DNA from: a bacterium
GTDB lineage: Bacteria; Patescibacteriota; Minisyncoccia; Phycocordibacterales; Phycocordibacteraceae
NCBI GenBank assembly: GCA_037200965.1
Contig: JBBCGK010000001.1
Span: forward strand, 544,001-608,000
Reading direction: 5' to 3'
DNA: 64,000 nucleotides
Positions 1,190 through 60,507 of the stretch are shown piece after piece. The translations under genes were made by a program, and so were the position numbers. Below the pieces are notes generated by a model. That model worked only from the letters and a program-made list of their open reading frames with translations, was not told the origin of the DNA and made no database searches. Each line of letters begins with the position of its first letter. The stretch's first letter is position 1.

Positions 1190-2173
1190 ATGCAGCACGA
1201 TGCGCTCTTCTTCATCGGCATCTTCATATTCATTTTCCTCGTATGGGTGGCGACCGGCGGACCTTCACGCCCGATCTCGTTCGCGGGTCCTTTTCTTTCT
1301 TCGCCGACAACCGCCGGGAACGTCACGACCTATTATCTTCCCCAGGCTTCGTTCGGCATCGGGGACAGCAATGAACAACTGTCACTCTACGGCGGCGGCA
1401 CGACGAGAACGTCCCTTTCAAACATCCAAAGCGAAGCGGACCGGCTCGCCGAACAAGTGAAGGACGCGGCGGCGTTTGGCACTCCGTCGCCATACCGGGG
1501 ACTCGTGAGCATAAGCAAGAGCACGGCGGGACCCGCGAACGCCGATTACGAACAGGAATATGTCGAGATCGATATGTCGCGCCAGGCGAAAGAAGGCGTC
1601 GACATCACCGGATGGAAGCTTATAAGCACCGCGAGCGATCGCGTCGGAGTCATACGCGAGGGCGCTACCGTACCGCGGACGGGAAGCGTTAACCCGACCG
1701 AGCATATCGTGCTTCAGCCGGGCGATCGCGCCATCGTCTCGACCGAGCGCTCCCCTATCGGCGTCTCCTTCCGCGAGAACATGTGCACCGGATACCTGGG
1801 CCAGTATCAGAATTTCTCCCCGCACCTTTCCCTGAGCTGCCCCGATCCGCTCTCGGAATTCGACCGCTACTACGCAGGCAATCCTCTTAAGGACGACGCC
1901 TGCTATGATCTGATGCGCGACACGCGGCGGTGCGAGATTCCTTCGGATAAGAGCCGGAGGCTCTCGAGCTCCTGTTTCGACATGATCGACAACCGCCTCA
2001 ATTATAACGGCTGCGTCGAAACACACCGGAACGACCCGGATTTCGCGAGAAACACGACCTGGCGCATCTATCTCAACCGCGACGAGGATGACGGCGAAAT
2101 TTGGAAAGCCGACCGCGAAGGCATCAAGCTCGTCGATGCCGAGGGAAAGACCGTGGACCTATTCACGTATTAG
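1190..2173 (+). CDS. N-terminally membrane-anchored protein with lamin-tail-like (LTD) domain
   Basis: N-terminal hydrophobic helix FFIGIFIFIFLVWVA; central block EYVEIDMS...DITGWKLIS...IVLQPGDRAIV resembles the LTD fold signature. Confidence 0.45.
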   Translation: MQHDALFFIGIFIFIFLVWVATGGPSRPISFAGPFLSSPTTAGNVTTYYLPQASFGIGDSNEQLSLYGGGTTRTSLSNIQSEADRLAEQVKDAAAFGTPSPYRGLVSISKSTAGPANADYEQEYVEIDMSRQAKEGVDITGWKLISTASDRVGVIREGATVPRTGSVNPTEHIVLQPGDRAIVSTERSPIGVSFRENMCTGYLGQYQNFSPHLSLSCPDPLSEFDRYYAGNPLKDDACYDLMRDTRRCEIPSDKSRRLSSSCFDMIDNRLNYNGCVETHRNDPDFARNTTWRIYLNRDEDDGEIWKADREGIKLVDAEGKTVDLFTY

Positions 2174-2196
2174 CGGTATAAAAAGCTGGTTCGCAC

Positions 2197-2269
2197 GCGC
2201 CCGTAGCTCAGTCGGTAGAGCAGCTCCCTTTTAAGGAGACGGTCCCTGGTTCGAGCCCAGGCGGGCGCA
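2197..2269 (+). tRNA. tRNA-Lys (anticodon TTT)
   Basis: Cloverleaf folded by hand: acceptor GCGCCCG/CGGGCGC, D-stem GCTC/GAGC, anticodon loop CTTTTAA, T-arm CCTGG-TTCGAGC-CCAGG, discriminator A; 73 nt. Confidence 0.9.
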
Positions 2270-2270
2270 C

Positions 2271-2307
2271 AAAATGAAAAGCCTCCTTATTGGAGGCTTT
2301 TCATTTT
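2271..2307 (+). terminator. Intrinsic terminator hairpin after tRNA-Lys
   Basis: 16-bp perfect inverted repeat AAAATGAAAAGCCTCC / GGAGGCTTTTCATTTT with 5-nt loop; T-rich 3' side. Confidence 0.6.
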
Positions 2308-2353
2308 ATACGGGCAGTGTTACAAGTAGCGGGAAGTTCTAGAGGATAATGCC

Positions 2354-2698
2354 ATGATTTATATCTTTGGCCTGGTGCTCATGGCCAATTTGTACCTGAA
2401 GCAAAAAGCTCCGGTTTTATGGCCCGTAAGCGCAGGCGCGCCGGAGCCGGAATTCACCGAGTACTCGCGGGCATTTCACGCCATGATCGCCTTCGAGAAA
2501 CGGCTGTTTCCGTTGGCAAACAGGATCGCGCTTGTGGGACTTCTCGGAATCGCAACAGTTGCGCGGTTCGATTACGCTGCCGCAACAGATGTTCTGTTCG
2601 CCCTTGTCTGCTTGAGCTATATCGGGCTCAATTATCTCCCGCAGTACTGCCCTTACGCCCTGCGCGACTCGAAACTTCTCGAACGCATCGTGGGCTAG
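2354..2698 (+). CDS. hypothetical small membrane protein
   Basis: ORF with two hydrophobic segments; no recognisable motif. Confidence 0.3.
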   Translation: MIYIFGLVLMANLYLKQKAPVLWPVSAGAPEPEFTEYSRAFHAMIAFEKRLFPLANRIALVGLLGIATVARFDYAAATDVLFALVCLSYIGLNYLPQYCPYALRDSKLLERIVG

Positions 2699-2863
2699 TG
2701 CCGCCTCACCAGAGACCCCTCATCGGCTCTCGGTGAGGCGGTTTCTGTTTAGAATTCACAAATTGCAGTGCCAGTATTCTCTTTTTTCAAAGCCGTACGA
2801 TGGTACACGGCCGAAATAGATTCGAAATTTCTGCGAAACGCTAAATATGCTATACTGGCAGCA

Positions 2864-3094
2864 ATGAAACACATTATCCAGTACCGGATTTTCAAAGGCG
2901 ACACGCACTACGTCGCCGAGGGTTTGGACTTGCCGGTGGTGACCCAGGGCGAGACGCTCGACGAACTCGCAAAAAATATCCAAGAAGCCACGGAACTCTG
3001 CCTCGAAGGAGAAGACCCCGCGGACTTCGGCCTTTCTCCGGCTTCTCCCGTGCTGGTAAACTTCGAGCTTCCGCGCGCTCTGGCGCATGCCTAA
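2864..3094 (+). CDS. hicB: HicB-family antitoxin (UPF0150-like); alternative upstream start 2768
   Basis: Short acidic protein MKHIIQYRIFKGDTHYVAEGLDLPVVTQGETLDELAKNIQEA typical of the HicB N-terminal RNase H-like fold; TATACT -10-like hexamer 12 nt upstream of ATG 2864; overlaps hicA by 8 nt. Confidence 0.55.
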   Translation: MKHIIQYRIFKGDTHYVAEGLDLPVVTQGETLDELAKNIQEATELCLEGEDPADFGLSPASPVLVNFELPRALAHA

Positions 3095-3332
3095 GACAAA
3101 AACCTTAAGCGGGCAGGAAGTCGTGCGAATCTTCGGGGGCTTCGGGTTTTCCACAGCGGACCAGCGAGGAAGTCATATCAAGCTGCGTCGTATTGCCAAG
3201 GACGGCACCCGCGAGACCCTCACCGTTCCCAACCACAGGGAGCTTGATCGCGGCACGGTCGTATCGCTTTTCAAGCAAGGAACACGGTATATTTCGGAGT
3301 CCGAACTCAAGCCGCATTTCTATACGCCTTAA
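3087..3332 (+). CDS. hicA: HicA-family mRNA interferase toxin
   Basis: MPKTKTLSGQEVVRIFGGFGFSTADQRGSHIKLRR...TLTVPNH matches the HicA/YcfA signature (G-x-E-x(4)-L-x(2)-GF-x(4)-G-SH). Confidence 0.7.
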   Translation: MPKTKTLSGQEVVRIFGGFGFSTADQRGSHIKLRRIAKDGTRETLTVPNHRELDRGTVVSLFKQGTRYISESELKPHFYTP

Positions 3333-3365
3333 TATGCGGAGTTTGATTCTTGTCTCCTGCGCGCG

Positions 3366-3968
3366 TCAAGCGTGCTCGAGCGCCTTATACCCGTATCCGC
3401 TCCCGCTGTCGGTCTTGATGATCCTGTAAAACCAGTACTCCATCTCTCCGTCGGAGCGCTTCGCTCCAATGCCGAAGACATACGGTTTGTGGGACGCGAC
3501 ATCCCCCGACTCATACATGCGGATAACTGATTGCAAGTCGGTAAGGGACGGTTTTGGGATTCCGGACGCGGGATGCGTATGGACATCACCAATTAAATGG
3601 AAATCCCTGTACTCGGCGTGCCTTTCTTGTATTTCCTCGATGCGCCTCCTCATCAATCCGAGATCGACCGAAACCGTCTCGACGCCCTCTTTATACGAGC
3701 CGTATTTTGTCAGCTCTTCCTCCGTCTCCTGATAGACGCCTTTAATCTGGAGATTGACTTGGCCCGCACTGTCAATCGCATATGACCCGAGCAGAGCACC
3801 GTACCGCTCGGTTCCGGTCGCAGCATCCGCACCGGAAACTTTCGGCAAATGATCGACCACATCGGGCGCAAGTTCGAAAGAAACTTTTAGATTCTCATCT
3901 AGAAAATCGATACTGGGGATCTGTTCTTGATGAGGCTTTCTTTCAGGAATGTGAGGACCTTCACTCAT
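3366..3968 (-). CDS. JAB/MPN (JAMM) metalloprotease-domain protein, possibly RadC-like
   Basis: Complete JAMM motif HTHPASGIPKPSLTD (H-x-H-x7-S-x2-D) with upstream conserved Glu; lies 38 nt downstream of holA on the same strand. Confidence 0.6.
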   Translation of the reverse strand: MSEGPHIPERKPHQEQIPSIDFLDENLKVSFELAPDVVDHLPKVSGADAATGTERYGALLGSYAIDSAGQVNLQIKGVYQETEEELTKYGSYKEGVETVSVDLGLMRRRIEEIQERHAEYRDFHLIGDVHTHPASGIPKPSLTDLQSVIRMYESGDVASHKPYVFGIGAKRSDGEMEYWFYRIIKTDSGSGYGYKALEHA

Positions 3969-4006
3969 ACTTTAATCATATCATTCCTTAATAATTGCGA
4001 CGTAAA

Positions 4007-4705
4007 TCAAAGCGACAGCGCGAAACGCTCGAGCGCAAGCGTAAGATCGCTTCCGGTACGGCGGGAATCCTGGAGCAAGGAAATGAGTTTGAGCGAGAGT
4101 TCGCGCGCAGCACGCGGCGGATACGCCCTCCCGCCTCCTTTCGCGAGAATGTCGCGCGCCTTCCAGTGGAGGAGGCCGTGGAGCATCTCGGGAGCGTCGC
4201 CCTGGCGAAGCGCCCGCTCGATCTCAAGCCACAATTTCTCGCCGTCGCGGGCGGCAAGCGCGTTCGTAAGGTTGATGTTGAACCCGCGGGCGGGAGGGGC
4301 CTTCGGAAGGTCGAACGCATAATCTTTCGCGGCCCTGGCGATGATCTTCTTCGCCTTCGCCGCAAGAAGTTTCGGCGCCACTATCACGATCGCATTATCA
4401 GACGCGGCGAGCATGTCGAGCGCGGATGCGAACACATCCTTATCCTCCTCCTCTTCCTCGTCTTCCTCTTCGTCTTCCACCGCTTTCCTTTTTGTTTTCG
4501 CGAACGGATCGTCAAACAGCACGAGAAGTCGTTTTATAAAGAGCCCCCCGGACTGCGCGGCATCCTCAAGCACGCTTTCCGTGATGTCCTCCTTGGCGAT
4601 GCGCGCATACGCGAGCCCCGGTTCCTTCGCGCGCGCGGCCGCGACCCAGGCGAACGCCTTCTCGCGCACCTTGTCCGTATCTGAGCCGTGGAAAAGATAG
4701 ATCAT
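4007..4705 (-). CDS. holA: DNA polymerase III delta subunit-like protein
   Basis: N-terminus MIYLFHGSD... typical of delta subunit; acidic insert EDEEEDEEEEEDKD; start overlaps polA stop by 4 nt (operon). Confidence 0.5.
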   Translation of the reverse strand: MIYLFHGSDTDKVREKAFAWVAAARAKEPGLAYARIAKEDITESVLEDAAQSGGLFIKRLLVLFDDPFAKTKRKAVEDEEEDEEEEEDKDVFASALDMLAASDNAIVIVAPKLLAAKAKKIIARAAKDYAFDLPKAPPARGFNINLTNALAARDGEKLWLEIERALRQGDAPEMLHGLLHWKARDILAKGGGRAYPPRAARELSLKLISLLQDSRRTGSDLTLALERFALSL

Positions 4706-7122
4706 GATGGTTCCATCTCGCCCCAGTTTTTGCCGAACTTGGTGTCGACCGAAAGCGGCACGCCGTTCGTCTCCTTGCTCGTGAGGACGGACTCCATGAT
4801 GCGGCAGATCTTCGCGCCGACCTCCCTGGCGTGCTCCTCCCGTATCTCATACACGAGTTCGTCGTGTACCTGAAGCAGGAGATATGCCTGCTCCGCCATC
4901 CCTTCCGCCCGTATCATCTCGTCTGCTTCGACCATCGCCCGCTTGATGATGTCCGCGGACGTTCCCTGTATCGGCGCGTTTATGGCCATGCGTTCCGCCT
5001 GCGCGCGTACGTACGGAAGCGTCGACTTCATGCCCGAAAACTGCCGGCGGCGGCCGAAATACGTCTCGGTGTATCCGTGCTTTCTCGCAAACCCTCTTGT
5101 GCGCTCGAGATACTCGGCAAGGCCCGTGAACTGGGCGAAATAGTCGTCATAGAAGCGGTGCGCCTCGGCACTTGAAGTACCGAGCTGGGTCTTAAGCGCG
5201 TTCACGCCCATACCGTAGAGGATGCCGAAGTTGATGATCTTCGCGCGGCGGCGCATCTCGCGATCGACCGCGCCGGCTTCGACGCCGAAAACACGTGCGG
5301 CCACTTCCGTGTGCACGTCTCGCCCGTTCCTGAAGATCCCGCAGAGTTTCTCGTCGCCCGACAGAAACGCCGCGATGCGAAGCTCGATCTGCGAATAGTC
5401 GAGCGCGACGAGCGAGAAGCCTGGCGTCGCGAGAAAAGCTTTCCGCACGTTCCTGCCCCTTTCGGTGCGTATCGGAATGTTCTGCAGGTTCGGGTTCTGG
5501 GACGCCATGCGCCCGGTCGTCGTTCCGGTCTGGAGGAAGTCCGCATGGAGGCGGTCTTCCGTATCAAGCAAAGGCGGGAGCGCTTCGATGTACGTCGACA
5601 GAAGCTTCCCCACTTCCCGATACTCGAGGATATCCGCGATGATCGGGTGTTCCCCGGCGAGCTTCTCGAGCTCGCTCTCGCGCGTCGAGCGCTGACCGCC
5701 TGCCGTGAGTTTCTGGCGCTTGCCGCCGCCTTGGGTGAGCTTGAGCTCGTCGAAGAGCACGTCGCCGAGCTGCTTGGGCGAGCTGATATTGAATTCGTGT
5801 CCCGCATGCTGGTATATCTTCGCTTTAATGGCATCAAGTTCGCTTTGATAGCGGCTTCGGAGGTCCTCAAGCACTTCGCGCGAGATAAGGACGCCGCGCG
5901 TTTCCATATTCCGTATGACGGCGGTCAGCGGCCTTTCTATCTTCTCGTACACTTCCTTTAGTTTTTCTTCTTCCGCAAGGCGGCTCTCAAGCGCCGCGTA
6001 TGCCTCGTCGAACGTATCCTTCTTTGTATACGCATACATGTCCTCGAGCGTCGGGTTCGTCGAGTCGGAGGCGAGAAGCCAGAGCATGACCTGCGCGCGT
6101 TCGAAACTGGCCGGATCTACCTCTTCCGCGGGCTTCTCGCGTTCTTCCGGCGGAGCTTCGCCAGCTTCTTCCTTCGAAACCGCCTGCCCGGCAAACAGCG
6201 CCTTCACCCGCTCGCGAAGCGTCCGGAAGCCGAGCTCGTCGAAAAGCTTGGTGAGGTCTTCGATCTTCGCTTCCCCGGGCCAGGCACAGTCGGAGAGAGA
6301 AAATTCGCACGGCGCATCGAGCCGTATGGTCGCGAGCATCTTCGAAAAAATCGCGTCTTCCTCATGTTCCCTGAGAAGCTCGACCGTCCGCGCTTTCACG
6401 CCCTTCTCGAGAAACGGCGCTCCCCCGCTTTTCTTAAGCAGCTTGTACATGTTCTCGATCGTGCCGAAGTTGATGATGAGTTCGGTCGCGGTCTTCTCGC
6501 CCACCCCCGGGATGCCGATGATGTTGTCCGAGGGATCGCCCCGGAGCCCCTTGAAATCGGGAATGAGCGCGGGCGGAAAGCCGAAGCGCTCCCCGACCGC
6601 CTTCTCGTCATAGAGAATGGTGTCGTTTAATCCTTTCTTGAGCGTATAGACCTGGACCCGCTTCCCTTCGACAAGCTGCAGCGTATCCATGTCGCCCGAG
6701 GCGATAACAACGTCGACGTCGTTATTCTTTTTGAGGAGATGGCTGATGGTGCCGAGAAGGTCGTCGGCTTCGAATCCTTCTTTCTCATATATGGGAATAT
6801 CGAATGCCTTGAACAGGTCGCGCGAGCGCTGCAGCTGAAGTATCAGGTTCTGGTCTATCTCCGCGCGCTTTCCTTTGTACTGCTCATACGCCTCGTGGCG
6901 GTGGGTGGGCTTCGGGAGGTCGTAGCAGGCGGCGATATAGTCGGGCTTCAAGTCCGCGACGATCTTGAGGAGCATGGTGACGACGCCATAGAGCGCGCCG
7001 GTCGGCTCGCCCGAGGGGCCTGTGAACTCGGGAAGCGCATGGTACGCGCGGTGAATAATCGCATGCGCATCAAGGAGAACGAGGCGCTTCTTGCCGCTTC
7101 CCGGTTGTTTCGCGTTAGCCAT
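4702..7122 (-). CDS. polA: DNA polymerase I (5'-3' exonuclease + polymerase domains; short form)
   Basis: N-terminal FEN/5'-3' exo motifs (LLDAHAIIHRAYHAL, H3TH GIPGVGEKTA); C-terminal PolA motifs A/B/C (DYSQIELR, RRRAKIINFGILYG, QVHDELV); 806 aa. Confidence 0.9.
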   Translation of the reverse strand: MANAKQPGSGKKRLVLLDAHAIIHRAYHALPEFTGPSGEPTGALYGVVTMLLKIVADLKPDYIAACYDLPKPTHRHEAYEQYKGKRAEIDQNLILQLQRSRDLFKAFDIPIYEKEGFEADDLLGTISHLLKKNNDVDVVIASGDMDTLQLVEGKRVQVYTLKKGLNDTILYDEKAVGERFGFPPALIPDFKGLRGDPSDNIIGIPGVGEKTATELIINFGTIENMYKLLKKSGGAPFLEKGVKARTVELLREHEEDAIFSKMLATIRLDAPCEFSLSDCAWPGEAKIEDLTKLFDELGFRTLRERVKALFAGQAVSKEEAGEAPPEEREKPAEEVDPASFERAQVMLWLLASDSTNPTLEDMYAYTKKDTFDEAYAALESRLAEEEKLKEVYEKIERPLTAVIRNMETRGVLISREVLEDLRSRYQSELDAIKAKIYQHAGHEFNISSPKQLGDVLFDELKLTQGGGKRQKLTAGGQRSTRESELEKLAGEHPIIADILEYREVGKLLSTYIEALPPLLDTEDRLHADFLQTGTTTGRMASQNPNLQNIPIRTERGRNVRKAFLATPGFSLVALDYSQIELRIAAFLSGDEKLCGIFRNGRDVHTEVAARVFGVEAGAVDREMRRRAKIINFGILYGMGVNALKTQLGTSSAEAHRFYDDYFAQFTGLAEYLERTRGFARKHGYTETYFGRRRQFSGMKSTLPYVRAQAERMAINAPIQGTSADIIKRAMVEADEMIRAEGMAEQAYLLLQVHDELVYEIREEHAREVGAKICRIMESVLTSKETNGVPLSVDTKFGKNWGEMEPS

Positions 7123-11047: not shown

Positions 11048-11142
11048 TACTGCGCGTGCTGAATTAGCCCCGGGCTCATTACCAAACGACAAGGACAGGG
11101 CCGGGGACATCGGTAGTTCGAAACAGTTCAGGCTTGGCCGAT

Positions 11143-12570
11143 TTACATAAGCAGGAAGTAGTCGAGTGGAAGCTTCACTACATTCTCTTCCCTTGAGAGC
11201 AACAGGCTTGTAGTGCAGACAACGACTCCGAAATCGGTCTTGAAGTTTACCATCGTCGCTTTCACTTGTTCGTAGTTCTTTCGTCCGAGACCGACCTCAA
11301 AGGCAAGCTGCTTCTTGTCGGCGATCTGTACCAGGAAGTCGGCGCTACTCTTGGACGGGTCGTGCGTTAATCCTCCCGTCCTGGTTGCCACGAACTCCCG
11401 ATAGAAGTGGAGGCCTGCTATGTCTTCAAGATACTTGCCTTTTCTCGCAAGATACGTGCCTTCAATGCCGCTGACACTGAGAAGCGCCGAGCGAATTGCC
11501 GGACTCATGAACAGATACTTGGCTGGCTTACGCGCTTGCGCCGTTTTAGAGCCTTGGGCGGGTACTTTGATTATAAGTTCGGCTCGTTCAAGCACGTCCA
11601 GTACGGCCATGACCGTGTTATAGCTTAGCTGGACAACATTTTTTACATTGTTGACGCTTACAATGTCGCTATCGGCCATGATAAAGAGGAGGCGCTTGAT
11701 CGCGCTGAGCGTCGGCGCATCAAACTGCCCGAGGTCCTTTATATCTTTATCAATGATTCGATCCAGGAGAATGTTGATGTTGTCGTAAGCATTCGGGGTT
11801 ATCGCGCGGAGAGTAAAGGGCAGGGTGCCGTTCAAAAGGTATTCGTCGATTTCGGCTCGGTCAAAACGGGCCCACTGCGCCGCGACGTTTTGTTCAAGTT
11901 TCTTAAGCCGGTCGAAAGCGTCTCCGGCATTAGAAGCCCCATATAGCGCATCCTTAATCTTCTCCTTGAGTCCCGCCTGAGGGAAGATATTATGCTTGAT
12001 CATCTGGTACTCACCGAAACTAAGGGGATAAAGCTTCTCGAACTGCGCCCGACGAGCGACGTCCGGGTTTGACTGGAGCGACACCGCTGATGAACCGGTG
12101 CAGAACAGGAATACATTTCTCGCTCGGTCATGGAGAGACTTCAGGACCGCTGCCCAGTTTTTATCCTGCTGCACTTCATCAATGAAGAGCAGCACCGGAG
12201 TATCGAGGCTCTCGAACGGTTTCCCGAGAATGGATTCATAAGCGTCTAAAGCATCGTTCAGGGTCATGCCCCGGGTGACGAGATCGTCGACCGACATATA
12301 AAGGAAGCTGGTCGGGGCTTTGGAGACACGCCTCGTAGAGAGAAAGACCTGAGCCATTGCAGTAGTCTTTCCAACACCGCGCAGCCCAGGGACAATTATC
12401 CAGCGTACCGTTCGGGCACCTTCAAGGAAATCATTCACATACTTTTTTATACGGATAACGATATGTCTTTCCGGAAAGGTGAACGTGGCCGTTTGAAACA
12501 CGTACGGGCGGAGGCGGTCCTCGCTACGGTTTAGCTGATTTTGAATATACTCAAGGGCTTCGGTATTCAT
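11143..12570 (-). CDS. AAA-family ATPase with C-terminal DUF4143-like domain
   Basis: Walker A GLRGVGKTT, Walker B LLFIDEVQ; 475 aa; gene and its 5' intergenic region are lower-GC than the neighbouring ruv genes. Confidence 0.65.
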   Translation of the reverse strand: MNTEALEYIQNQLNRSEDRLRPYVFQTATFTFPERHIVIRIKKYVNDFLEGARTVRWIIVPGLRGVGKTTAMAQVFLSTRRVSKAPTSFLYMSVDDLVTRGMTLNDALDAYESILGKPFESLDTPVLLFIDEVQQDKNWAAVLKSLHDRARNVFLFCTGSSAVSLQSNPDVARRAQFEKLYPLSFGEYQMIKHNIFPQAGLKEKIKDALYGASNAGDAFDRLKKLEQNVAAQWARFDRAEIDEYLLNGTLPFTLRAITPNAYDNINILLDRIIDKDIKDLGQFDAPTLSAIKRLLFIMADSDIVSVNNVKNVVQLSYNTVMAVLDVLERAELIIKVPAQGSKTAQARKPAKYLFMSPAIRSALLSVSGIEGTYLARKGKYLEDIAGLHFYREFVATRTGGLTHDPSKSSADFLVQIADKKQLAFEVGLGRKNYEQVKATMVNFKTDFGVVVCTTSLLLSREENVVKLPLDYFLLM

Positions 12571-14284: not shown

Positions 14285-16372
14285 ATGACCAAGCGAGCGC
14301 GCGTCCGCCCGAAGCGGCACCACTTCATCCTTACGCTCGCGCTTTTCGCGGCGGGCCTCGTGCTTATCCTCGTCGGCGTCGGCGCGGTATGGATAGCCCT
14401 CGCGCCCACCCCCGACATCGATTCCTTCGCAACCCGGGAGATAAGCCAGTCGACGAAGATATACGACCGTACCGGCACCATCCTCCTCTATGACCTCAAT
14501 ACCGATACCCGGCGCGATATCGTAAGCCTCGCGAGCACGTCGCCCTATGTCCAGAAGGCGACGGTCGCGATCGAGGACGCGGATTTCTATCAGCACTCGG
14601 GCATCCGCATCACCTCGATCTTCCGCGCCATCCTCGCCGACCTCACGCCGGGCGGCCTCACCCAGGGCGGCTCGACCATCACGCAGCAGGTGGTGAAGAA
14701 ATCCATCCTCACGGACGAGAAGAGCATCACCCGCAAGGTGCACGAATGGATACTCGCCATAAAGCTCGAACAGAAATACTCCAAGGATCAGATTCTCGAA
14801 ACGTATCTCAACGAAGTCCCGTACGGCGGCAGCCTCTACGGCATCGAATCGGCAAGCGAGGCGTATTTCGGCACGAATGCGGGAGGGCTCTCGCTCGCCG
14901 AGTCCGCGTATCTCGCCGCAATCCCCCAGGCTCCCACGTACTATTCCCCGTACGGAAGCCACCGCGCCTCGCTTGATGCCCGCCAGGCCCTGGTGCTCGA
15001 GCGCATGAAGGAACTCGGGTTCATAACCGACGAGGAATACGCGGCGGCGAAGGCGGAGGTGGTGACGTTCAACCCGCAGCAGCCTTCCTCGATCATCGCC
15101 CCGCACTTCGTCTTCTATATACGGGAATACCTCGAGAACAAGTACGGCCCGCAGGAACTCGCTTCAGGAGGGCTTAAAGTAGTGACGACGCTCGACGCGG
15201 ATCTTGAGCACGACGCGGAGTCTCTCGTAAACAAGTATGCGCTTGAGAACGTGAAGAAATTCAACGCGAGCAACGCTTCCCTCGTCGCGATCGACCCCAA
15301 GACCGGGCAGATACTCGCGATGGTGGGCTCGAGGGACTATTTCGACAAGGACATCCAGGGGAACTTCAACGCCGCGACCTCACACCGCCAGCCAGGCTCG
15401 ACCTTCAAGCCCTTCGTCTATGCGGCGGCGCTCAGGAAAGGCTTTACGCCCGACACCGCGATATTTGACGTGCCGACCCAGTTCTCCACTTCCTGCAGCC
15501 CCTCGGATATTTATAACGACACCCCTCCCTGCTACGCTCCGAGCGACTATGACGACAAGTTCCGCGGCCCCATGACCTTCACGACGGCGCTCGCGCAGTC
15601 GATCAACGTGCCGGCGGTGAAGACGCTCTATCTCGCGGGAATACAGAACGTGCTCGATGTCGCAAGCGCGATGGGCATCACCTCGCTTGGCGACCGCAAG
15701 CAATACGGACTCTCGCTTGCGCTTGGCGCGGGCGAAGTTTCGCTCCTTGAGCTCACGAGTGCGTACAGCGCCTTCGCCGCCGACGGGGTACGGAATCCTC
15801 CGGTCGGGATACTCTCGGTCACCGACAGCGCCGGAAACACGCTTGAGGAATACACGCCCGCCCCCGAGCAGGCGCTCGATCCGAACGTGGCCCGGGAGAT
15901 GTCCGCCATGCTCTCGAACAACCCGGCCCGGTTCCCCGAATACCCGCCCCAGAATCCGCTCAATATCCCCGGATATGATGTGGCGGTCAAAACGGGAACG
16001 ACGAACGACTATAAGGACGCATGGACGGTCGGCTATACGCCGTCGATCGCGATCGGCGTGTGGGCCGGGAACAACGACAACAGCCAGATGGTGAAGGAGA
16101 TCGCGGGCTATATCGTCGCCCCGATGTGGAACGCGGTGATGGTCAAGGCGCTCGCCAAGTATCCGAAGGAATACTTTGGAGAGCCGATACCACCGCCCGA
16201 GATTTCGCCGATACTTCAGGGCATCTGGAATCCCGAAGGGCAGGTACACAGCGAGCTCTACTGGCTTGATAAAGATAATCCGCAGGGAGGGGCGCCGGGG
16301 AATCCGGGGAACGATCCGCAGTATCGGTACTGGGAGTATGCGGTGCAGTCGTGGTTTGGGAGGTCTATTTGA
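14285..16372 (+). CDS. Class A penicillin-binding protein (bifunctional glycosyltransferase GT51 / transpeptidase)
   Basis: N-terminal TM anchor; GT51 motifs EDADFYQHSGI, GGSTITQQVVK, RKVHEWILAIKLE; transpeptidase STFKPF, SxN and KTGT motifs. Confidence 0.9.
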   Translation: MTKRARVRPKRHHFILTLALFAAGLVLILVGVGAVWIALAPTPDIDSFATREISQSTKIYDRTGTILLYDLNTDTRRDIVSLASTSPYVQKATVAIEDADFYQHSGIRITSIFRAILADLTPGGLTQGGSTITQQVVKKSILTDEKSITRKVHEWILAIKLEQKYSKDQILETYLNEVPYGGSLYGIESASEAYFGTNAGGLSLAESAYLAAIPQAPTYYSPYGSHRASLDARQALVLERMKELGFITDEEYAAAKAEVVTFNPQQPSSIIAPHFVFYIREYLENKYGPQELASGGLKVVTTLDADLEHDAESLVNKYALENVKKFNASNASLVAIDPKTGQILAMVGSRDYFDKDIQGNFNAATSHRQPGSTFKPFVYAAALRKGFTPDTAIFDVPTQFSTSCSPSDIYNDTPPCYAPSDYDDKFRGPMTFTTALAQSINVPAVKTLYLAGIQNVLDVASAMGITSLGDRKQYGLSLALGAGEVSLLELTSAYSAFAADGVRNPPVGILSVTDSAGNTLEEYTPAPEQALDPNVAREMSAMLSNNPARFPEYPPQNPLNIPGYDVAVKTGTTNDYKDAWTVGYTPSIAIGVWAGNNDNSQMVKEIAGYIVAPMWNAVMVKALAKYPKEYFGEPIPPPEISPILQGIWNPEGQVHSELYWLDKDNPQGGAPGNPGNDPQYRYWEYAVQSWFGRSI

Positions 16373-16388
16373 GAAGGAATAACCTTGC

Positions 16389-16457
16389 GCGAGTTGGTCG
16401 TCTAAGACGATTTTGGAACATGCCCTGGCACAGCGAGGTTCGAACCCCGACAACGGA
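16389..16457. repeat. GC-rich extragenic repeat family, copy A
   Basis: Contains CGAGTTGGTCGTCTAAGAC and CCCTGGCACAGCGAGGTTCGAACC blocks shared with copies at 16868, 18398 and 19601. Confidence 0.45.
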
Positions 16458-16554
16458 GCACGACATTGACAGTAGTAACATAGTTTAGTACAAGGATTAT
16501 AGGGTCTAGATTCTTCCGGCAGTTCCAATCTTCTGTCGCGCTCAGGAGGGCATC

Positions 16555-16806
16555 ATGTATTACTCTGAATCTTTGAGCCGCCTCGGCTTCAAGAAAGTTA
16601 CCGGGCCTGTGCCCTGTCTGCACCGGACGCATCGCGGCGTTTATACCACCGGAGAATATTTTGGCACGGTGTGGACCTGCGCCAGCGACGAAGACTATGC
16701 TCTGTGGATCAAGAAAGGAAATGGTGAGATTGGTCAGTATGGCTTTACGAAGGTCTCCAACCTTTCCGTGGATATAACAGGGCTTGAACCGGTTCCCTTG
16801 GAGTAA
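16555..16806 (+). CDS. hypothetical protein (83 aa), island cargo
   Basis: Good SD (AGGAGG 7 nt upstream of ATG); low-GC; no recognisable motif. Confidence 0.35.
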   Translation: MYYSESLSRLGFKKVTGPVPCLHRTHRGVYTTGEYFGTVWTCASDEDYALWIKKGNGEIGQYGFTKVSNLSVDITGLEPVPLE

Positions 16807-16867
16807 GGGAGCCGGTTTTTTGAACGTCTTCCACCAACCTGATTTGAATATTCTTCGTGAAAATGTC

Positions 16868-16975
16868 AGCTAGCCGTCCGGCACGAAGTTGGAGCCTTAG
16901 CTCAAGAAAAAACGTATATTTATTTTAACCCATAGCGACTCATGAAAGTTATGGGCCGACCGTCTCGAGCGCGCA
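16868..16975. repeat. GC-rich extragenic repeat family, copy D (two sub-blocks)
   Basis: CCGTCCGGCACGAAGTTGGAGCC and GGGCCGACCGTCTCGAGCGCGCAAGGG embedded in AT-rich spacer; shares motifs with copies A, B and C. Confidence 0.4.
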
Positions 16976-16987
16976 AGGGAAACTGTC

Positions 16988-18406
16988 TTACTCAACCCTT
17001 ATTAGCGGCGTTGCCCCGAAAGTAACCTTCTGTGGTATTCCGTCCTTTATATCGCTAAATGTAGCTATTTCCCCTCTCGAACTAAATCCGCTCCCTCCTT
17101 TTAATAGGAACTTACTTTCATCTATCGACTGAAGAATCGTTTTATTGCTACCAAATAGTGGAGAGCTTGTATTCATATCAAAAGAAACTAGCGTATCTTT
17201 TATCTTAACTACTACCTTGTCTTCTCCAGAATTCCGATAAATACCTTCGTATTTTATACCATCAACTTTATTTTCCGACGTGTAATCAGAATTATTTTCA
17301 GTAAGACTGTATATTGCTTGAAAAATGCTCTGGGCATATGCCCATACCGGAGCTTTTGAGGTATTTGCGAGCACAACAACACCAAGTTCATTCCCGTAAT
17401 CAATGGCAACCTTTGATACAAAACCTTTGAAGCCTCCGCCATGGCCATATACTTTTTTAGAACTAACGTCATACATTTCAATCCCTAAACAGTATTTATC
17501 CGTACTCCTGGTATAGAAATCAGGCTCTGTAACCATACTTTGTTTAGATTCATTCTTTAAAAGAATCTCTGGTGCCTTAAACGGGAAGGTGGCTATATAT
17601 CTTGCAAGATCAATAGCATTTGAAATAAAGCCAGTCGCTGGCGCATAGGCATTAGCAGAGTAATGCCCGTACTTTTCCCTTTCCTGACCTGGTATTTCTC
17701 GTCCAAGGCCATTAGCAAGACCTCCTATATCTTTTTTATAATCAGTGAAGGTTGAGACCATGTCTAGCCTATCTAAGATATTTGCTTGAATATATTCCTC
17801 ATAAGACAGGCCGCTTACAGCAGCAATAAGTTCGCCTAAAACCGCGAAGCCGTAATTGGAGTATTTGAACTGAGAAGATGGTTTAAAAACCAAAGCTTCG
17901 TCTAAAAGAAGCTGAAGCGTCGTGGGGAATTCACCTGTAAACCAATGGGGTGTAGTACCTTCGCTCCAAATACCAGACGTGTGAGACAGTAATTCGTTAA
18001 TTGTAATATCTTCTAATTTGCCGTTTTCATTCTCTCCTTTGAACCATGGGAGATACTTTGAGACTGAATCTGTGAGTTTGATCTTTTCTTCTTCTACGAG
18101 TTGAAAAACTGCAACCGATGTAAACATCTTTGAAACAGAACCAATGTGATATAGGGTGTTTTCACTAACTTCAATCTTTTTTTCTAGGTCAGCATATCCA
18201 AAACCCTTCTTATACAAAACTTCTCCTTTATAAATAATTGCAATTGAAACACCAAGCACTTTATCGTATTGCAGTCTTAAAGGAAGCCATACCTCCAATA
18301 GATGCGCGACTTCTTTGATTGCTGATTTAATGTCGATCTCCACAACTATAATTGTAGTACAAAAAATGAAGTACCACGAGCAGTACGATTGTTCTGCGCC
18401 TCTCAA
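16988..18406 (-). CDS. Beta-lactamase-family serine hydrolase (class C beta-lactamase / PBP4-like / esterase fold); probable true start near 18343 (GTG)
   Basis: S-x-x-K active-site motif SVSKMF after the YHIGS block; YxN-like and later motifs of the family; about 450 aa; markedly low GC; the listed 5' extension uses a TTG and overlaps repeat copy B. Confidence 0.7.
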   Translation of the reverse strand: MRGAEQSYCSWYFIFCTTIIVVEIDIKSAIKEVAHLLEVWLPLRLQYDKVLGVSIAIIYKGEVLYKKGFGYADLEKKIEVSENTLYHIGSVSKMFTSVAVFQLVEEEKIKLTDSVSKYLPWFKGENENGKLEDITINELLSHTSGIWSEGTTPHWFTGEFPTTLQLLLDEALVFKPSSQFKYSNYGFAVLGELIAAVSGLSYEEYIQANILDRLDMVSTFTDYKKDIGGLANGLGREIPGQEREKYGHYSANAYAPATGFISNAIDLARYIATFPFKAPEILLKNESKQSMVTEPDFYTRSTDKYCLGIEMYDVSSKKVYGHGGGFKGFVSKVAIDYGNELGVVVLANTSKAPVWAYAQSIFQAIYSLTENNSDYTSENKVDGIKYEGIYRNSGEDKVVVKIKDTLVSFDMNTSSPLFGSNKTILQSIDESKFLLKGGSGFSSRGEIATFSDIKDGIPQKVTFGATPLIRVE

Positions 18407-18460
18407 GCGCGAAACCCTGGCACGAGTTGGCTGGCCGCCTCGAGTTCGAACCGTATAGAG
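18398..18460. repeat. GC-rich extragenic repeat family, copy B
   Basis: CAAGCGCGAAACCCTGGCACGAGTTGGCTGGCCGCCTCGAGTTCGAACC; about 85% identical to copy C. Confidence 0.5.
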
Positions 18461-18528
18461 ACAAGTCCGGGTTAGTACGTTTGATGAGTTTCGAGAATAT
18501 AAAACGATGCGTCTCGTGCGGCGAGGAC

Positions 18529-18903
18529 TTAGTTACCAAATACTACTTCTACATTATTTCCATCTGGATCTAGTACAAATGCTCCGTAGTAGTTTTCGTG
18601 ATATTCAGACCTAATACCTGGTGTTCCGTTATCTCTTCCTCCCGCATCAAGAGCTAATTTATGGAACTCATCCACCTCCTGTCTTGATTGAGCTTTCCAA
18701 GCGATGTGTGCTGGACCACTTATGGGTGCTTCACCGGCAAAGAACGTATTTGTCTTACCATCCTTTCCGAAGCCAATAACACGAACATGATCTTCATATG
18801 TTTGATCAAAGTTCAGTGAATATCCAAGGGGAGAAAGCGCAGCAGAATAGAATCGAGCTGTAGCTGCAATGTCACTTACTTTAAAAGTTATATGGTCGAG
18901 CAT
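18529..18903 (-). CDS. VOC-family protein (glyoxalase / bleomycin-resistance / dioxygenase fold)
   Basis: MLDHITFKVSDIAATARFYSAALSPLGY N-terminal beta-alpha-beta-beta-beta module and second module ending YYGAFVLDPDGNNVEVV; low GC. Confidence 0.65.
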   Translation of the reverse strand: MLDHITFKVSDIAATARFYSAALSPLGYSLNFDQTYEDHVRVIGFGKDGKTNTFFAGEAPISGPAHIAWKAQSRQEVDEFHKLALDAGGRDNGTPGIRSEYHENYYGAFVLDPDGNNVEVVFGN

Positions 18904-18915
18904 ATATGAATTATA

Positions 18916-19566
18916 TCAGCGCGGTTCTTCTTCGGTTGCTGTAGGCTCATCTTGTACAGACGCCTGTTTAGCTGCAGGAAGTGCTCGGGCTCGACGGAAT
19001 TTATAAAATCCCTCCAGTGCTGAAATGACTGCATCGATTACTTCGTTTGCATCCTCTTTGGTTACTGGCGCCGCTAAATCATCTGGGTGCATAACGTCAT
19101 TACGGCCGAGTCGAGCAACTGTGCTATCTGCAAATTGATCTGCATCGATCGCATCTCCATTCTTTAGCAACTCCAATCTCTTTTTTAGGCTCTTTCCCGC
19201 ATCTGAAGGTGACTTTAAGAATGCATTTACAAGTGCATCAAGCATAATTCCCGCTAAGGCAACTGAACTTCTGTAATTGCCATTATTGAACTCGACATAC
19301 ATTTCACCGCAGATCTCGCGGTAATTCTCTGGGAGCCAAGATGGTACTTGATGAGTTGAAATTACTGGATAAACGAATTTTACTCTGTTTTTAAATCCTG
19401 GCTCATGTTCGACGACAAAAGCATGCCCTCCCGGACATTCAACTACGCAGACGGTTTGTCCTTCACGGAACTGGTGTTGCCAAACTTCTGCAAAATAGGA
19501 GTGCAGCCCACACCTAGGACAATTGCCACTCCATCTATTTCCGTCTGTCCATGTCATTTGAATCAT
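18916..19566 (-). CDS. Zn-ribbon protein with DUF4145-like C-terminal domain
   Basis: N-terminal CPRC...CVVECPGGH four-Cys/His cluster; C-terminal ALAGIMLDALVNAFLK...ARLGRNDVMHPDD resembles the DUF4145 helical core; ATG preceded by a TATAAT-like box (leaderless-like); low GC. Confidence 0.45.
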   Translation of the reverse strand: MIQMTWTDGNRWSGNCPRCGLHSYFAEVWQHQFREGQTVCVVECPGGHAFVVEHEPGFKNRVKFVYPVISTHQVPSWLPENYREICGEMYVEFNNGNYRSSVALAGIMLDALVNAFLKSPSDAGKSLKKRLELLKNGDAIDADQFADSTVARLGRNDVMHPDDLAAPVTKEDANEVIDAVISALEGFYKFRRARALPAAKQASVQDEPTATEEEPR

Positions 19567-19600
19567 ATTTTCATTATATCGCTTCTTGCGATTTTGCTAA

Positions 19601-19660
19601 GCGACGCCTCCCAAGCGCGAAACCCTAGCACGAGTTGGGTGGCCGTCTCAGACTCGAATA
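19601..19660. repeat. GC-rich extragenic repeat family, copy C
   Basis: CAAGCGCGAAACCCTAGCACGAGTTGGGTGGCCGTCTCAGACTCGAATAC; paralogous to copy B. Confidence 0.5.
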
Positions 19661-19669
19661 CTAAGCTTG

Positions 19670-19921
19670 TTATCGAATCCCCTTCACCGCCACCCCCGCC
19701 CCCCGGAGCGCATCCGTTATGGCCGCCTCTCGCAGATGCATTTCGGACTTAATCACAGGGGATACTTTAAGCGACACGGTCTCGTCCTCATAAGACACCT
19801 GGCTCGCCTTTATCGTAAGGCCAAGGACGCTGCTTATGGTCTCCGCGCACACCCTCCGCCTCTCGGACTGCCGGAGGCCCGGTACCGGGTGCTTGAGCAA
19901 TATGTCCGAGAGGGATTTCAT
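19670..19921 (-). CDS. small protein downstream of dnaN, tentatively DUF721/DciA-like
   Basis: 83-aa ORF separated from the dnaN stop by 10 nt on the same strand; position and N-terminal MKSLSDILLK... pattern reminiscent of DUF721 proteins encoded after dnaN; weak. Confidence 0.3.
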   Translation of the reverse strand: MKSLSDILLKHPVPGLRQSERRRVCAETISSVLGLTIKASQVSYEDETVSLKVSPVIKSEMHLREAAITDALRGAGVAVKGIR

Positions 19922-23186: not shown

Positions 23187-23226
23187 CCCAAATAAAGCCG
23201 CAGACCTTATCTGCTACCATTACCCT

Positions 23227-23652
23227 ATGGCAACAATAAATCCCTGGATTAACTTCAACGGCAATGCCGAAGAAGCCTTTATGTTTTACAAATCAGTATT
23301 TGGCGGTGAGTTTACAAAGATTATCCGTTTGAAAGATCTTGCGAGTTCCGAGTTTCCCGTAGCGGACGCGGATGCGGAGAAAATCATGCTCATCGCCCTG
23401 CCGATTGGCAAGAACAGCGTATTGATGGCAAATGACGTACCCTCATTTATGGGTAGGGTGAGTGAAAATGAAAACCGAAGTAAAATCTCGGTCAGTACAG
23501 AGAGCAAGGAGGAAGCGGAGGCTATATTTGAAGGCCTCTCGGCAGGAGGGCAAGTCGAAGCGCCGCTCGGTGAGAGTGCGTGGGGAACCTATTTTGGCAT
23601 GTTCAGGGACAAATATGGCATCGAGTGGATAGTGGAGTTTCGATTTGAATAA
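23227..23652 (+). CDS. PhnB-like VOC-family protein; upstream extension to 23110 unlikely
   Basis: MATINPWINFNGNAEEAFMFYKSVFGG...KIMLIALPIGKNSVLMAND...EAPLGESAWGTYFGMFRDKYGIEWIVEF matches the PhnB/3-demethylubiquinone MTase-like VOC family; low GC. Confidence 0.6.
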   Translation: MATINPWINFNGNAEEAFMFYKSVFGGEFTKIIRLKDLASSEFPVADADAEKIMLIALPIGKNSVLMANDVPSFMGRVSENENRSKISVSTESKEEAEAIFEGLSAGGQVEAPLGESAWGTYFGMFRDKYGIEWIVEFRFE

Positions 23653-23697
23653 GTTTTTAATCAAAAGGCGCACAATCTTAACCCCGCTTAGACTCTC

Positions 23698-24630
23698 ATG
23701 CTTCCCAAGCTTACAGACGACCAAATTAAAAGTGTTTTTACTAACGTTGGCCTCGGCACTCCGAACACCATCAAAAAACTCAGTGTCGGCTTCTCAAACG
23801 ATGTGTATTCCGTAGACGATAAATACATTTTTAAGGCCATTAGGAACGAAGAAGACACGTCGTATCTAAAGAAGGAAATCCACCTTTGCAATTTGTTTAA
23901 GGAGAGGCTGCCCGCACCAGTAGTCGTGCATTCCGATACCGCTAAAGCCGCCCTTGATAGGGCGTATGTCATATACGAGAAGATTCAAGGAGATAACCTT
24001 TATATGCGGTGGCACGAATATTCCACCGAGGAGCGAAAGGCGATAGTCGAACAGATTTGCTCCTATCTTAAAGTCATTAACACTGAGCCTTTTAAAGATT
24101 TTACTGACGCTTTCAATATTGATACCAAAACTTCATGGCACGAACGGATAGCTACGAAAATACAAGAACATAAACTGAAAGCCCTTTCTGTTAATGCTAT
24201 TTCGTCTGAACAGGCGGAGCGAGTAGATGAGTATGTGAGGACTAGTTTAGTAGCACTCGATGAGTCCGTTATGGCACTGACTTACTTTGATGTTCACTTC
24301 GATAATTTTATCGTTCGAGACAAAAAGATAGTCGGAATGCTCGATTTTGAGAGGACGGATTTTTACTCGATAGATTTCGTATTGGATATCGTGCGACGCA
24401 TGGTCAACGAGCCGACTAAATACGCTTCCGAAGAAGCCGAACCGCTCATCAAGGCAGAGGATTATGCGAGTTTGATGGAACAGTACAAAGAGTATTATCC
24501 TCAACTCTTTGACTTTGAAAATCTTGAAGCGCGCCTCAAGCTATACTCAATAGACCACGACCTAGACCAACTCCATACGTGGCCTGAATCAGCGAGCCTT
24601 AAAGAGAGCTTGGCGAGGAATACTCAGTAG
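23698..24630 (+). CDS. Phosphotransferase (APH / choline-kinase) family protein
   Basis: Kinase-like fold markers: conserved Lys block IFKAI, Brenner motif YFDVHFDNFIV (H-x-D-x4-N), Asp-containing LDFE; 310 aa; low GC. Confidence 0.65.
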   Translation: MLPKLTDDQIKSVFTNVGLGTPNTIKKLSVGFSNDVYSVDDKYIFKAIRNEEDTSYLKKEIHLCNLFKERLPAPVVVHSDTAKAALDRAYVIYEKIQGDNLYMRWHEYSTEERKAIVEQICSYLKVINTEPFKDFTDAFNIDTKTSWHERIATKIQEHKLKALSVNAISSEQAERVDEYVRTSLVALDESVMALTYFDVHFDNFIVRDKKIVGMLDFERTDFYSIDFVLDIVRRMVNEPTKYASEEAEPLIKAEDYASLMEQYKEYYPQLFDFENLEARLKLYSIDHDLDQLHTWPESASLKESLARNTQ

Positions 24631-24773
24631 GCAAAATGTTCCGTTTCATCAGCCGCATCAAACACCCGTTGGCCCATCTGATTCATATACTCTCGGTTGA
24701 ATAGCAGGGGTGTATTTAGGTGACGCTCTGAGGGAGAACGGAATCGATAAATGAGGTATTATACGAAGCACGC

Positions 24774-51764: not shown

Positions 51765-52247
51765 GTGCCGATACCCTACCACATCTTGATTATTTATGCA
51801 AGGGTTGTATTGTAAGTGCTGGTTCGGCAGCACTGTTTTAACGGAGGAACTCATGCATAAGATAGTCGCTTCTTTTTGCGCCGACGGGCGGGAAATCCTG
51901 ACCCCCGAGGTCAGAAAGGAAGCTCGCACAATCGGGCGGGCGCTGAAGAAGAGAGCGCCCCTTACGGGCTACATGGTTGTGGCAACCGGGAAAGGGATTC
52001 GGACATTTTCAGTTCTCCATGTTCCGAACATTAACCGGCTCAGTCTCGAAGGGGGCGGGCGCGTGTCGGTTTGGTGGCGCTCCAGTCGCAACGATGCGGA
52101 TACCATGTTCAAGCAATTGCTCGGTCTGCCCGAGGTCAGCTGCTGGGTGCTGACACTCTGAGTGTTCGAACGCCAGACAATGACGACCCGCGGCTGGTGC
52201 CGCGGGTCGCTAATTATTGTGCGCACATCGGTGCTACACTTCCCCAT

Positions 52248-60128: not shown

Positions 60129-60184
60129 TGGTAAAACAGGATCTTGCCAAGATTCAGTCGGGGGTTCGATTCCCCCTGTCCGCA
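60114..60184 (+). tRNA. tRNA-Gly (anticodon GCC), CCA encoded (to 60187)
   Basis: Acceptor GCGGACA/TGTCCGC, anticodon stem GGATC/GATTC loop TTGCCAA, T-arm GGGGG-TTCGATT-CCCCC. Confidence 0.9.
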
Positions 60185-60197
60185 CCAGCTTCTTGAA

Positions 60198-60231
60198 GCG
60201 CAAAAACGGCCTTGAATGGCCGTTTTTGCGC
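60198..60231 (+). terminator. Intrinsic terminator after tRNA-Gly(GCC)
   Basis: GCGCAAAAACGGCC-TTGAAT-GGCCGTTTTTGCGC, 14-bp perfect stem plus T-tract. Confidence 0.6.
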
Positions 60232-60396
60232 TTCGGACAAAAGTGGATAAAGGTGTTAATACTGGGGATAAAGGACAATATTTGACGCTCTGTCCACCGC
60301 GATGGTCTGTAGAATTGCAAGCAAATAGGCCCTCATTCTTAAAGCCGTGAGGTCCTCTCGGAAAATGAAGAAAGGACATAAAGGTTTTAGGCGACC

Positions 60397-60434
60397 AAAA
60401 TGTAAAACACCCCTGACGGGGTGTTTTACATTTT
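60397..60434 (-). terminator. Intrinsic terminator downstream of tRNA-Pro (minus strand)
   Basis: AAAATGTAAAACACCCC-TGAC-GGGGTGTTTTACATTTT, 17-bp stem. Confidence 0.6.
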
Positions 60435-60436
60435 GG

Positions 60437-60507
60437 TCGGGGCGCCGGGAATCGAACCCGGTCATCTTGCTCCCAAAGCAAGCGTACTACCGGTATACGA
60501 CGCCCCG
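60437..60507 (-). tRNA. tRNA-Pro (anticodon TGG), CCA encoded
   Basis: C1:G72 acceptor pair typical of bacterial tRNA-Pro; anticodon stem CTTGC/GCAAG loop TTTGGGA (G37); T-arm CCGGG-TTCGATT-CCCGG. Confidence 0.85.

Follow-up and report, generated by a model that had tools for sequence, protein, structure and literature searches.

What is the origin of a short repeat that recurs beside the genes of a small, low-GC island near the replication origin of a bacterium of the Candidate Phyla Radiation (CPR, Patescibacteria)? The island lies in a 64,000-nt stretch of contig JBBCGK010000001.1 (assembly GCA_037200965.1, positions 544,001 to 608,000; hereafter the window), and the closest named relatives of the DnaN protein encoded there are from Parcubacteria/Paceibacterota. 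An original prediction, made from the sequence alone, described four or five copies of the repeat, called A to D, that were thought to flank each gene of the island. We find that two copies, B and C, are real, that they have the layout of the 3' end of a tRNA followed by a common trailer, that homologues of them exist in other Parcubacteria, and that the island is missing from its site in close relatives. The explanation that we consider rather probable is that B and C, and probably a decayed third copy (A1) as well, are attachment (att)-type direct repeats that stem from the 3' end of a tRNA gene and were left by serial integration, the array having moved later without the tRNA or the integrase. 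Scars of this type, dividing an accreted island, are a known kind of feature; the host (a CPR bacterium) and the location (near oriC, with no tRNA and no integrase) are unusual.

An insert with repeats laid out like the end of a tRNA

The island is situated between two conserved genes, those of PBP1A and of an 83-aa open reading frame (ORF) called orf83, and the order of the neighbourhood is PBP1A, a second 83-aa ORF, a serine hydrolase, VOC, DUF4145, orf83, then dnaN and dnaA. The site is empty in relatives with an 86% identical DnaN (L010-L012; L-numbers denote contigs from public sequence collections), where PBP1A and orf83 have stop codons that overlap in the sequence CTAG. In a further relative with an 81% identical DnaN the two genes are likewise adjacent, as seen at the gene level, the DNA having been compared for L010-L012. 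Since the stops overlap or the genes adjoin in these relatives, the insert can be bounded at 16373-19669, i.e. between the stop codons of the two convergent genes. Note that the last few codons of both flanking genes have also been replaced by the insert, the last three or four codons of orf83 being unlike those of the relatives. The island is thus absent from close relatives, as tRNA-gene (tDNA) islands are, but the empty site is not a tRNA gene. A comparison of the empty site with the att core gave only GCGCTAG-like similarity, and the junctions do not match what a crossover there would give. The window matches JAATEX010000034.1 (GCA_015655515.1) and two Logan assemblies at 100% identity.

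A repeat search of the window pairs 18397-18450 (B) with 19605-19658 (C) as a direct repeat of 54 nt with 85% identity, and a self-comparison by blastn-short aligns 41 nt of the two at 92.7% identity (E = 2e-11). The 38-nt consensus of B and C, with up to three mismatches allowed, is found at these two sites only, and in none of 100 shuffled sequences. The identity of about 85% that had been reported for B and C is therefore confirmed, and their coordinates were right within a few bases. The two copies are 1208 nt apart and bracket the DUF4145 and VOC genes, as the direct repeats of a tDNA island bracket the inserted DNA. The shorter motif GCACGAGTTGG, with at most one mismatch, occurs at three sites in the 64 kb as against 1.1 expected; these are in A, B and C, all on the plus strand and all in the island. 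Motif, blastn and profile searches found no further copies in the window outside the island.

The DUF4145, VOC and hydrolase genes are encoded on the minus strand, and read in this sense B and C follow the order of a tRNA end, i.e. T-loop (7 nt), 3' strand of the T-stem (5 nt), 3' strand of the acceptor stem (7 nt), discriminator base (1 nt) and CCA (3 nt), followed by a trailer of 31 nt. The spacing from TTCGA to CCA is exactly that of a tRNA (7+5+7+1+3). Copy C starts 11 nt past the orf83 stop, at tRNA position 54, and ends just upstream of the DUF4145 promoter. The remark in the original prediction that several copies contain a T-loop-like GTTCGAA was correct and is the key to this layout. 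Complete tRNAs had been said to be absent from the copies, and ARAGORN and Rfam agree: ARAGORN finds no tRNA in the island (none between 2.3 and 57.9 kb), Rfam finds no match with E < 1 over 15.5-20.5 kb, and B submitted as a 5'-truncated stretch gives no tRNA match. In the copy at the contig start of L022 the T-stem is paired (4/4), and Rfam gives a weak (12 bits), 5'-truncated match of this stretch to positions 48-71 of its tRNA model. The diverged copies all agree in T-loop positions 54 and 56-58, A72 and the CCA, and vary at the stem positions. Judged from the sequences, this is the pattern one would expect of a tRNA-derived sequence, unlike that of a decaying coding relic.

Copy A shares CCTTGCGCGAGTTGG with B and C (13/15). 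Its best gapped local score against them is 25, and about five unrelated places in the window equal this score or exceed it by one. A segment of it, A1, is nevertheless the best extra match of the family profile in the window, and it ranks third after B and C when the profile is built from foreign copies only. A1 shares the strand of B and C, its AAGGTTATT resembles TAGGTTATT of the L023 copy, and it lies 6-7 bases from the PBP1A stop, i.e. at the left edge of the island. Profile rank, position at the edge and strand thus speak for A as a family member and the alignment score speaks against it; A1 is probably a third copy. The case of copy D is different, as its alignment score of 19 is at background level (95th percentile), both profiles miss it, and it is matched solely by a regular expression that was written after D had been seen. 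Its membership is unsupported, and the permuted sub-motifs described for A and D are not demonstrable. With two certain copies and one probable one, the count of four or five copies flanking each gene was overstated.

Two further features of the copies were considered and rejected. A small trailer hairpin (GCGC-N7-GCGC) pairs out of register across loci on inspection by hand, and a small plus-strand ORF (30 aa in B, 45 aa in L022) has a synonymous-looking pattern only between B and the second L022 copy (L022_2), and is interrupted by a stop codon in L023.

Table 1. Positions in the window of the island, its flanks and its repeat copies, with the layout of two L022 copies. Slashes separate T-loop, T-stem 3' strand, acceptor 3' strand, discriminator base, CCA and trailer.
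Feature	Position	Strand	Remarks
PBP1A, class A penicillin-binding protein, left flank	14285..16372	+	Pfam Transgly + Transpeptidase
Strain-specific insert	16373..19669	.	3.3 kb, ~40% GC in a ~60% GC genome; GC profile and empty site of relatives
Copy A1, probable degenerate third copy	16378..16410	-	TCTTAGACGACCAACTCGCGCAAGGTTATTCC; profile E = 0.14 (family) and 0.49 (foreign copies only)
A2, possible partial copy	16423..16446	-	GGTTCGAACCTCG..GTGCCAGGG, i.e. B minus a 17-nt internal stretch; read by eye, without statistical support
83-aa ORF with intrinsic terminator	16555..16806	+	called as a gene in public assemblies
Copy D of the original prediction, relatedness not demonstrable	16868..16975	-	only CCAACTTCGTGCC (16880-16892, minus) core-like
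Beta-lactamase-family serine hydrolase, module downstream of B	16988..18343	-	PF00144, E = 3e-62
Copy B	18397..18452	-	between VOC 3' end and hydrolase promoter; trailer ACTCGTGCCAGGGTTTCGCGCTTGAGAGGCG (18427-18397)
Copy B, layout	18452..18428	-	GG TTCGAAC / TCGAG / GCGGCCA / G / CCA / trailer ACTCGTGCCAGGGTTTCGCGC...
VOC/glyoxalase-family gene, second in C-B module	18529..18903	-	Pfam PF00903
DUF4145-family gene, first in module bracketed by C and B	18916..19566	-	Pfam PF13643, E = 1.9e-7
Promoter-like TTAGCA-16-TATAAT, between copy C and DUF4145 start	19573..19600	-	10/12 matches
Copy C	19605..19658	-	tRNA-like part 19658-19636; trailer 19635-19605 ACTCGTGCTAGGGTTTCGCGCTTGGGAGGCG
Copy C, layout	19658..19636	-	TTCGAGT / CTGAG / ACGGCCA / C / CCA / trailer ACTCGTGCTAGGGTTTCGCGC...
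orf83, conserved 83-aa ORF downstream of dnaN, right flank	19670..19921	-	present in relatives
L022 second copy, layout			TCCGAAT / CCGAG / GTGGCCA / A / CCA / trailer ACTTGAGGTAGGTTCG...
L022 contig start, layout			TAGG TTCGAGT / CCTAG / TCTCGCA / G / CCA / ACTTGAGATAGGTTCG

Related elements and promoters in other Parcubacteria

The closest homologues of the island hydrolase (74-78% identical) are located on other Parcubacteria contigs in unrelated gene neighbourhoods. The regions upstream of them are homologous to that of the window, and in L022, L023 and L024 a B-like element is found at the same distance from the start codon; the orthologues in L020 and L028 are without the element. In the comparison with L023 the blastn homology extends from the hydrolase gene into B, to position 18433. 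When the window is searched with a profile made from the foreign copies only, the top two matches are B (E = 1.1e-4) and C (E = 1.2e-4), and the profile of B and C retrieves L022_2 (E = 1.4e-4) and the L023 copy (E = 1.8e-3). L022 is of particular value here as its tRNA-like end runs directly into the same trailer; the contig-start end is repeated in direct orientation by the second copy over 40 nt, at a distance of 2500 nt, and a 758-aa gene lies between the two. The hydrolase module and the element are found together in at least four different genomic contexts.

Homologues of the DUF4145 protein point in the same direction. One of them (46% identical, in L018) is encoded 43 nt downstream of a tRNA-Ala gene. 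In L019 another is encoded after a tRNA 3' end with which the contig begins, and the final 19 nt of this end recur 192 nt further on with 95% identity. The hydrolase module, in turn, follows a tRNA-Leu gene in L023. Because of these three contexts we conclude that both modules of the island recur beside tRNA genes or tRNA-end duplications in the lineage. No B/C-like element was found around the DUF4145 homologues. Att-site remnants of serial integrations had been one of the explanations originally offered for the repeats, and it is the one we favour, in as much as tRNA-end fragments in direct orientation bracket a two-gene module and homologous repeats lie near tRNA ends elsewhere.

Two other observations were made on these contigs. 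In L028 the hydrolase orthologue (62% identical, 1545-2825, minus strand) is divergent from a large serine recombinase gene (2977-4338, plus strand) and adjoins a DUF5681 gene; it appears to be part of a mobile element that has a different recombinase and is without the tRNA-like element. L022 contains a second intergenic repeat, GGTTCYAACGTCGTACCAAACTC, at 4002-4035 and 5417-5445, after the hydrolase gene and an HD-domain gene, and CCAACGTCGTACC within it resembles the core of B and C (CCAACTCGTGCC) and the core of copy D.

B and C are each positioned directly upstream of a promoter-like sequence. A conserved TGTAYTACAAT precedes the hydrolase orthologues of the window (18343-18361), L020, L022, L023 and L024, at a distance from the start codon of ~7 nt (window) to ~12 nt (L023, L024), and the TATAAT of the DUF4145 promoter is ~6 nt from the ATG. 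The closeness of these motifs to the start codons suggests that the transcripts of the hydrolase orthologues and of the DUF4145 gene are leaderless or nearly so. Copies next to promoters are to be expected of tRNA-derived scars, since the genes would originally have lain downstream of the tRNA, but the same arrangement leaves room for a regulatory role. The element might be a working cis-regulatory site (an operator, an upstream activating site or an insulator) kept upstream of accessory promoters, its tRNA look being an ancestral accident. It is always ~55-110 nt upstream of the start codon, in the orientation of the gene and directly upstream of a promoter-like sequence, and its core, CCAACTYGWGNYAGG, is more conserved between loci than the flanks are. 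However, operator-type dyad symmetry is absent, the island contains no regulator gene, A1, at the edge of the island, has no gene downstream of it in its orientation, the L020 and L028 orthologues do without the element, and the L022_1 copy at the contig start is continuous with a tRNA end. We consider a regulatory site, which had been among the early suggestions, improbable as the explanation of the repeats.

Possible assembly of the island and competing explanations

In the outline given with the Islander collection of tDNA islands (PMC4383910), a tRNA gene is split by integration and restored by the element, and the fragment that was displaced is left to mark the other end of the island. 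Applied to the present locus, each copy would represent tRNA positions 54-76 (T-loop, T-stem 3' strand, acceptor 3' strand, discriminator and CCA) with a trailer of ~31 nt; the crossover would have been at the T-loop, and the block of identity would reach ~31 nt beyond the CCA. The starting point may have been a donor Parcubacteria genome in which the tRNA and its trailer were followed by the hydrolase gene. A module of DUF4145 and VOC would then have integrated at that tRNA, giving C-[DUF4145, VOC]-B-[hydrolase]. In a third step, the array from tRNA position 54 onward would have moved to a non-tRNA site between orf83 and PBP1A, near dnaA-dnaN, where the scars are presumably inert at present. 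Should A1 be genuine, C and A1 would bound the island in direct orientation and B would be internal, which is the layout of tandem accretion.

A number of points weigh against an origin from tRNA-derived att sites. Firstly, the island has no tRNA 5' half, and no intact tRNA was found in or beside it. The same is true of an integrase, as the four ORFs encode a DUF4145 protein, a VOC protein, a beta-lactamase-family protein and a protein of unknown family; the locus thus has neither an intact target tRNA at one end nor an integrase next to an att copy, both of which mark tDNA islands. Secondly, the final insertion step is unexplained, because the empty site is no tRNA gene and is without the core. 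Thirdly, a search of IMG/VR for a matching attP or a related phage returned only chance matches. Fourthly, TTCGA-N15-CCA has a chance frequency of ~2 per 64 kb on both strands, and for this reason the chance probability of the tRNA reading, taken from B and C alone, is only ~1e-3. In addition, the sequences of B and C have diverged by 15%, the tRNA part more so than the trailer, and the sole copy with a paired T-stem (L022_1) is at a contig edge, so that the parent tRNA is not seen in full length. Finally, the same 26 nt of B are identical to the 3' end of a Tn3 resolvase gene.

This last point leads to a different origin for the repeats, namely that the two copies are remnants of the 3'-terminal ~15 codons of a Tn3-family resolvase gene (tnpR) on the plus strand (...KRETLARVGWP...), duplicated or carried in with transposon-adjacent DNA. 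Public collections were scanned with GAAACCCTNGCACGAGTTGG, which gave few matches. The GAAACCCTGGCACGAGTTGGCTGGCC of B (window 18411-18436) is identical in 26/26 positions to 3401-3426 of L004, a contig of a Desulfovibrionaceae metagenome-assembled genome (L006 is the same contig), and in 25/26 to 6188-6214 of L005, a contig much like L007. Resolvase genes located on metagenome contigs and on plasmids of enterobacteria (including L009, 4001-4027) match at 24-25/26 nt. In L004, L005 and L009 the stretch ends the resolvase reading frame (...RTTLIETLARVGWP...) and a Tn3 transposase gene comes directly after it. Among the plasmid blastn matches, 17/18 are in genes annotated as 'recombinase family protein' with a Tn3 transposase following, and the B+C profile matches resolvase sites with E = 7e-7 to 2e-5.

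At first sight these matches are persuasive, but the plasmid matches represent one transposon sequence (E = 0.3), and matches to a 19-nt pattern in the big collections are no commoner than chance, those in L008 and in viruses not extending. The likeness to tnpR genes with the Pfam domains Resolvase and HTH_7 consists of 24-26/26 identical nt over the ETLARVGWP codons; only ~27-30 nt match, and extending the match requires a 12-nt gap. The reading frame is not kept in the diverged copies. That of L023 is interrupted by a stop codon and contains many changes that are non-synonymous, and neither L022_1 nor L023 retains the W and P codons. The conserved TTCGA...CCA part is outside the resolvase similarity. 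A tblastn search with TnpR and TnpA across the window gives only 9-14 residues, at B and C; similarity over the frame is thus missing, as are tnpA, a res site and 38-bp inverted repeats nearby. We have demoted the resolvase idea, because the frame is not conserved, other parts of a transposon are absent and the match statistics are near chance, and we regard it as unlikely. The 26-nt identity is probably a coincidence, but its chance probability is only ~1e-3 to 1e-1, according to how one counts the searches. The case is a caution, as 26 nt in perfect agreement with a transposon resolvase gene suggested an origin that was plausible but probably wrong.

The copies could also be cassette recombination sites that are still active, either integron-like or cis-mobilisable with an integrase acting in trans, by which single-gene modules are shuffled among Parcubacteria. 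The modules are gene-sized and have their own promoters, copies in direct orientation stand between them, the hydrolase module occurs with its element in the several contexts described above, and L022 has the same architecture. Yet there is no attC-type hairpin, the window encodes a single tyrosine recombinase, which is Xer-like and 33 kb away, three independent assemblies are identical with no excision variant, and B and C have diverged by 15%. All in all, active cassettes seem very unlikely to us. A related and more speculative idea is that Parcubacteria share a cassette-like pool of accessory genes in which an element of ~55 nt that mimics a tRNA 3' end and its trailer serves as recombination site for gene-sized modules, with a recombinase in trans and insertion at non-tRNA sites such as the dnaN-PBP1A junction. 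We think it quite unlikely to be right. If true, the pool would be equivalent in function to integron cassettes and would be based on att sites of the tRNA type, with modules that each have their own promoter.

Integron attC sites proper, which had also been suggested, are alike in being short repeats in one orientation between single-gene, promoter-proximal modules. Unlike attC sites, the present copies have no imperfect palindrome or bulged hairpin and, by eye, no R''/L''-L'/R' boxes; IntI, attI and Pc are lacking, and each module has a promoter of its own. Folding of A to D on both strands gave no extra stability relative to shuffled sequences (z -0.5 to +1.4; for B and C -0.37 to +1.43, with RNA energy parameters only). 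The array is flanked by dnaN/orf83 and PBP1A, and there is no integrase within 30 kb. Integron boundaries were therefore rejected. The same was done with repetitive extragenic palindromic (REP) elements and other intergenic palindromic repeats, another of the early suggestions, as there is no palindrome or stable hairpin and no copy beyond the island in the 64 kb.

Comparison with known systems and other inserts in the window

It is useful to compare the locus with systems in which att-type repeats have been described. Like tDNA islands, as they are outlined for Islander (PMC4383910), the locus has direct repeats that consist of the 3' part of a tRNA from the T-loop on and a trailer, and these surround compositionally foreign DNA that relatives lack. 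Unlike them, it has no intact tRNA at either end and no integrase, its site is between two protein genes near oriC, and its modules contain one or two genes.

Tandem accretion, and elements without an integrase that are cis-mobilisable by virtue of their flanking att sites, are known from the streptococcal integrative and conjugative elements (ICEs) of the ICESt1/ICESt3 type. In both cases internal att copies separate modules acquired successively at one site, and some modules are without recombination genes; here, in contrast, neither an ICE nor an integrase partner can be seen, and the host belongs to the CPR. In archaea, genes bordered by partial tRNA genes have been captured by integrated elements of Sulfolobus, the integrase gene of which is partitioned. 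The likeness is that short tRNA fragments persist as direct repeats around captured genes after mobility has been lost, the difference that no integrase fragments were found in the present window.

Mobile DNA in the small genomes of CPR/Patescibacteria has been little reported, and a literature search found nothing specific. In the locus described here, accessory genes for a serine hydrolase, a VOC enzyme and a DUF4145 protein have come in as what are probably small modules marked by tRNA scars, amid the conserved dnaA-dnaN-PBP1A neighbourhood. As a sequence probe, the element could be of use for following this mobile gene pool and for detecting islands that have lost their integrase. As to the other island genes, the 83-aa ORF at 16555..16806 is in the left part of the island, between D and A, where the GC content is intermediate, and it has no match in Pfam or PADLOC. 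PADLOC gave no match to a defence system among the island proteins.

Recombinase genes are found elsewhere in the window. The Xer-like tyrosine recombinase (52239-53168, plus strand; Phage_integrase and SAM_1 domains) is 32% identical to an approximate query for XerD of E. coli, and its gene adjoins those of a Vut_1 transporter and a TrmB-family regulator. A large serine recombinase of 441 aa (Resolvase, Recombinase and Zn_ribbon_recom domains; 61479-62804, minus strand) is encoded in DNA of ~50-55% GC, just beyond a tRNA-Gly/Pro/Gly cluster (60114-60675), and is probably part of another integrated element or prophage that runs to the window end.

The neighbourhood of the island contains other inserts. 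A second low-GC insert (23190-24770, ~46-47% GC) lies between rnpA and yidC and carries a glyoxalase/3-dmu-9_3-mt-like gene and a gene of the aminoglycoside phosphotransferase (APH) family; in L010 the gap between dnaA and yidC is only ~590 nt, with room for rpmH and rnpA alone. Neither a B/C-like element nor a resolvase relic was found in this 23.2-24.8 kb insert. An AAA_14/DUF4143 ATPase gene (~11100-12570, minus strand), in DNA of lower GC content, adjoins yebC, and since ruvB comes directly after yebC in relatives, this segment is a third strain-specific insert in the conserved neighbourhood.

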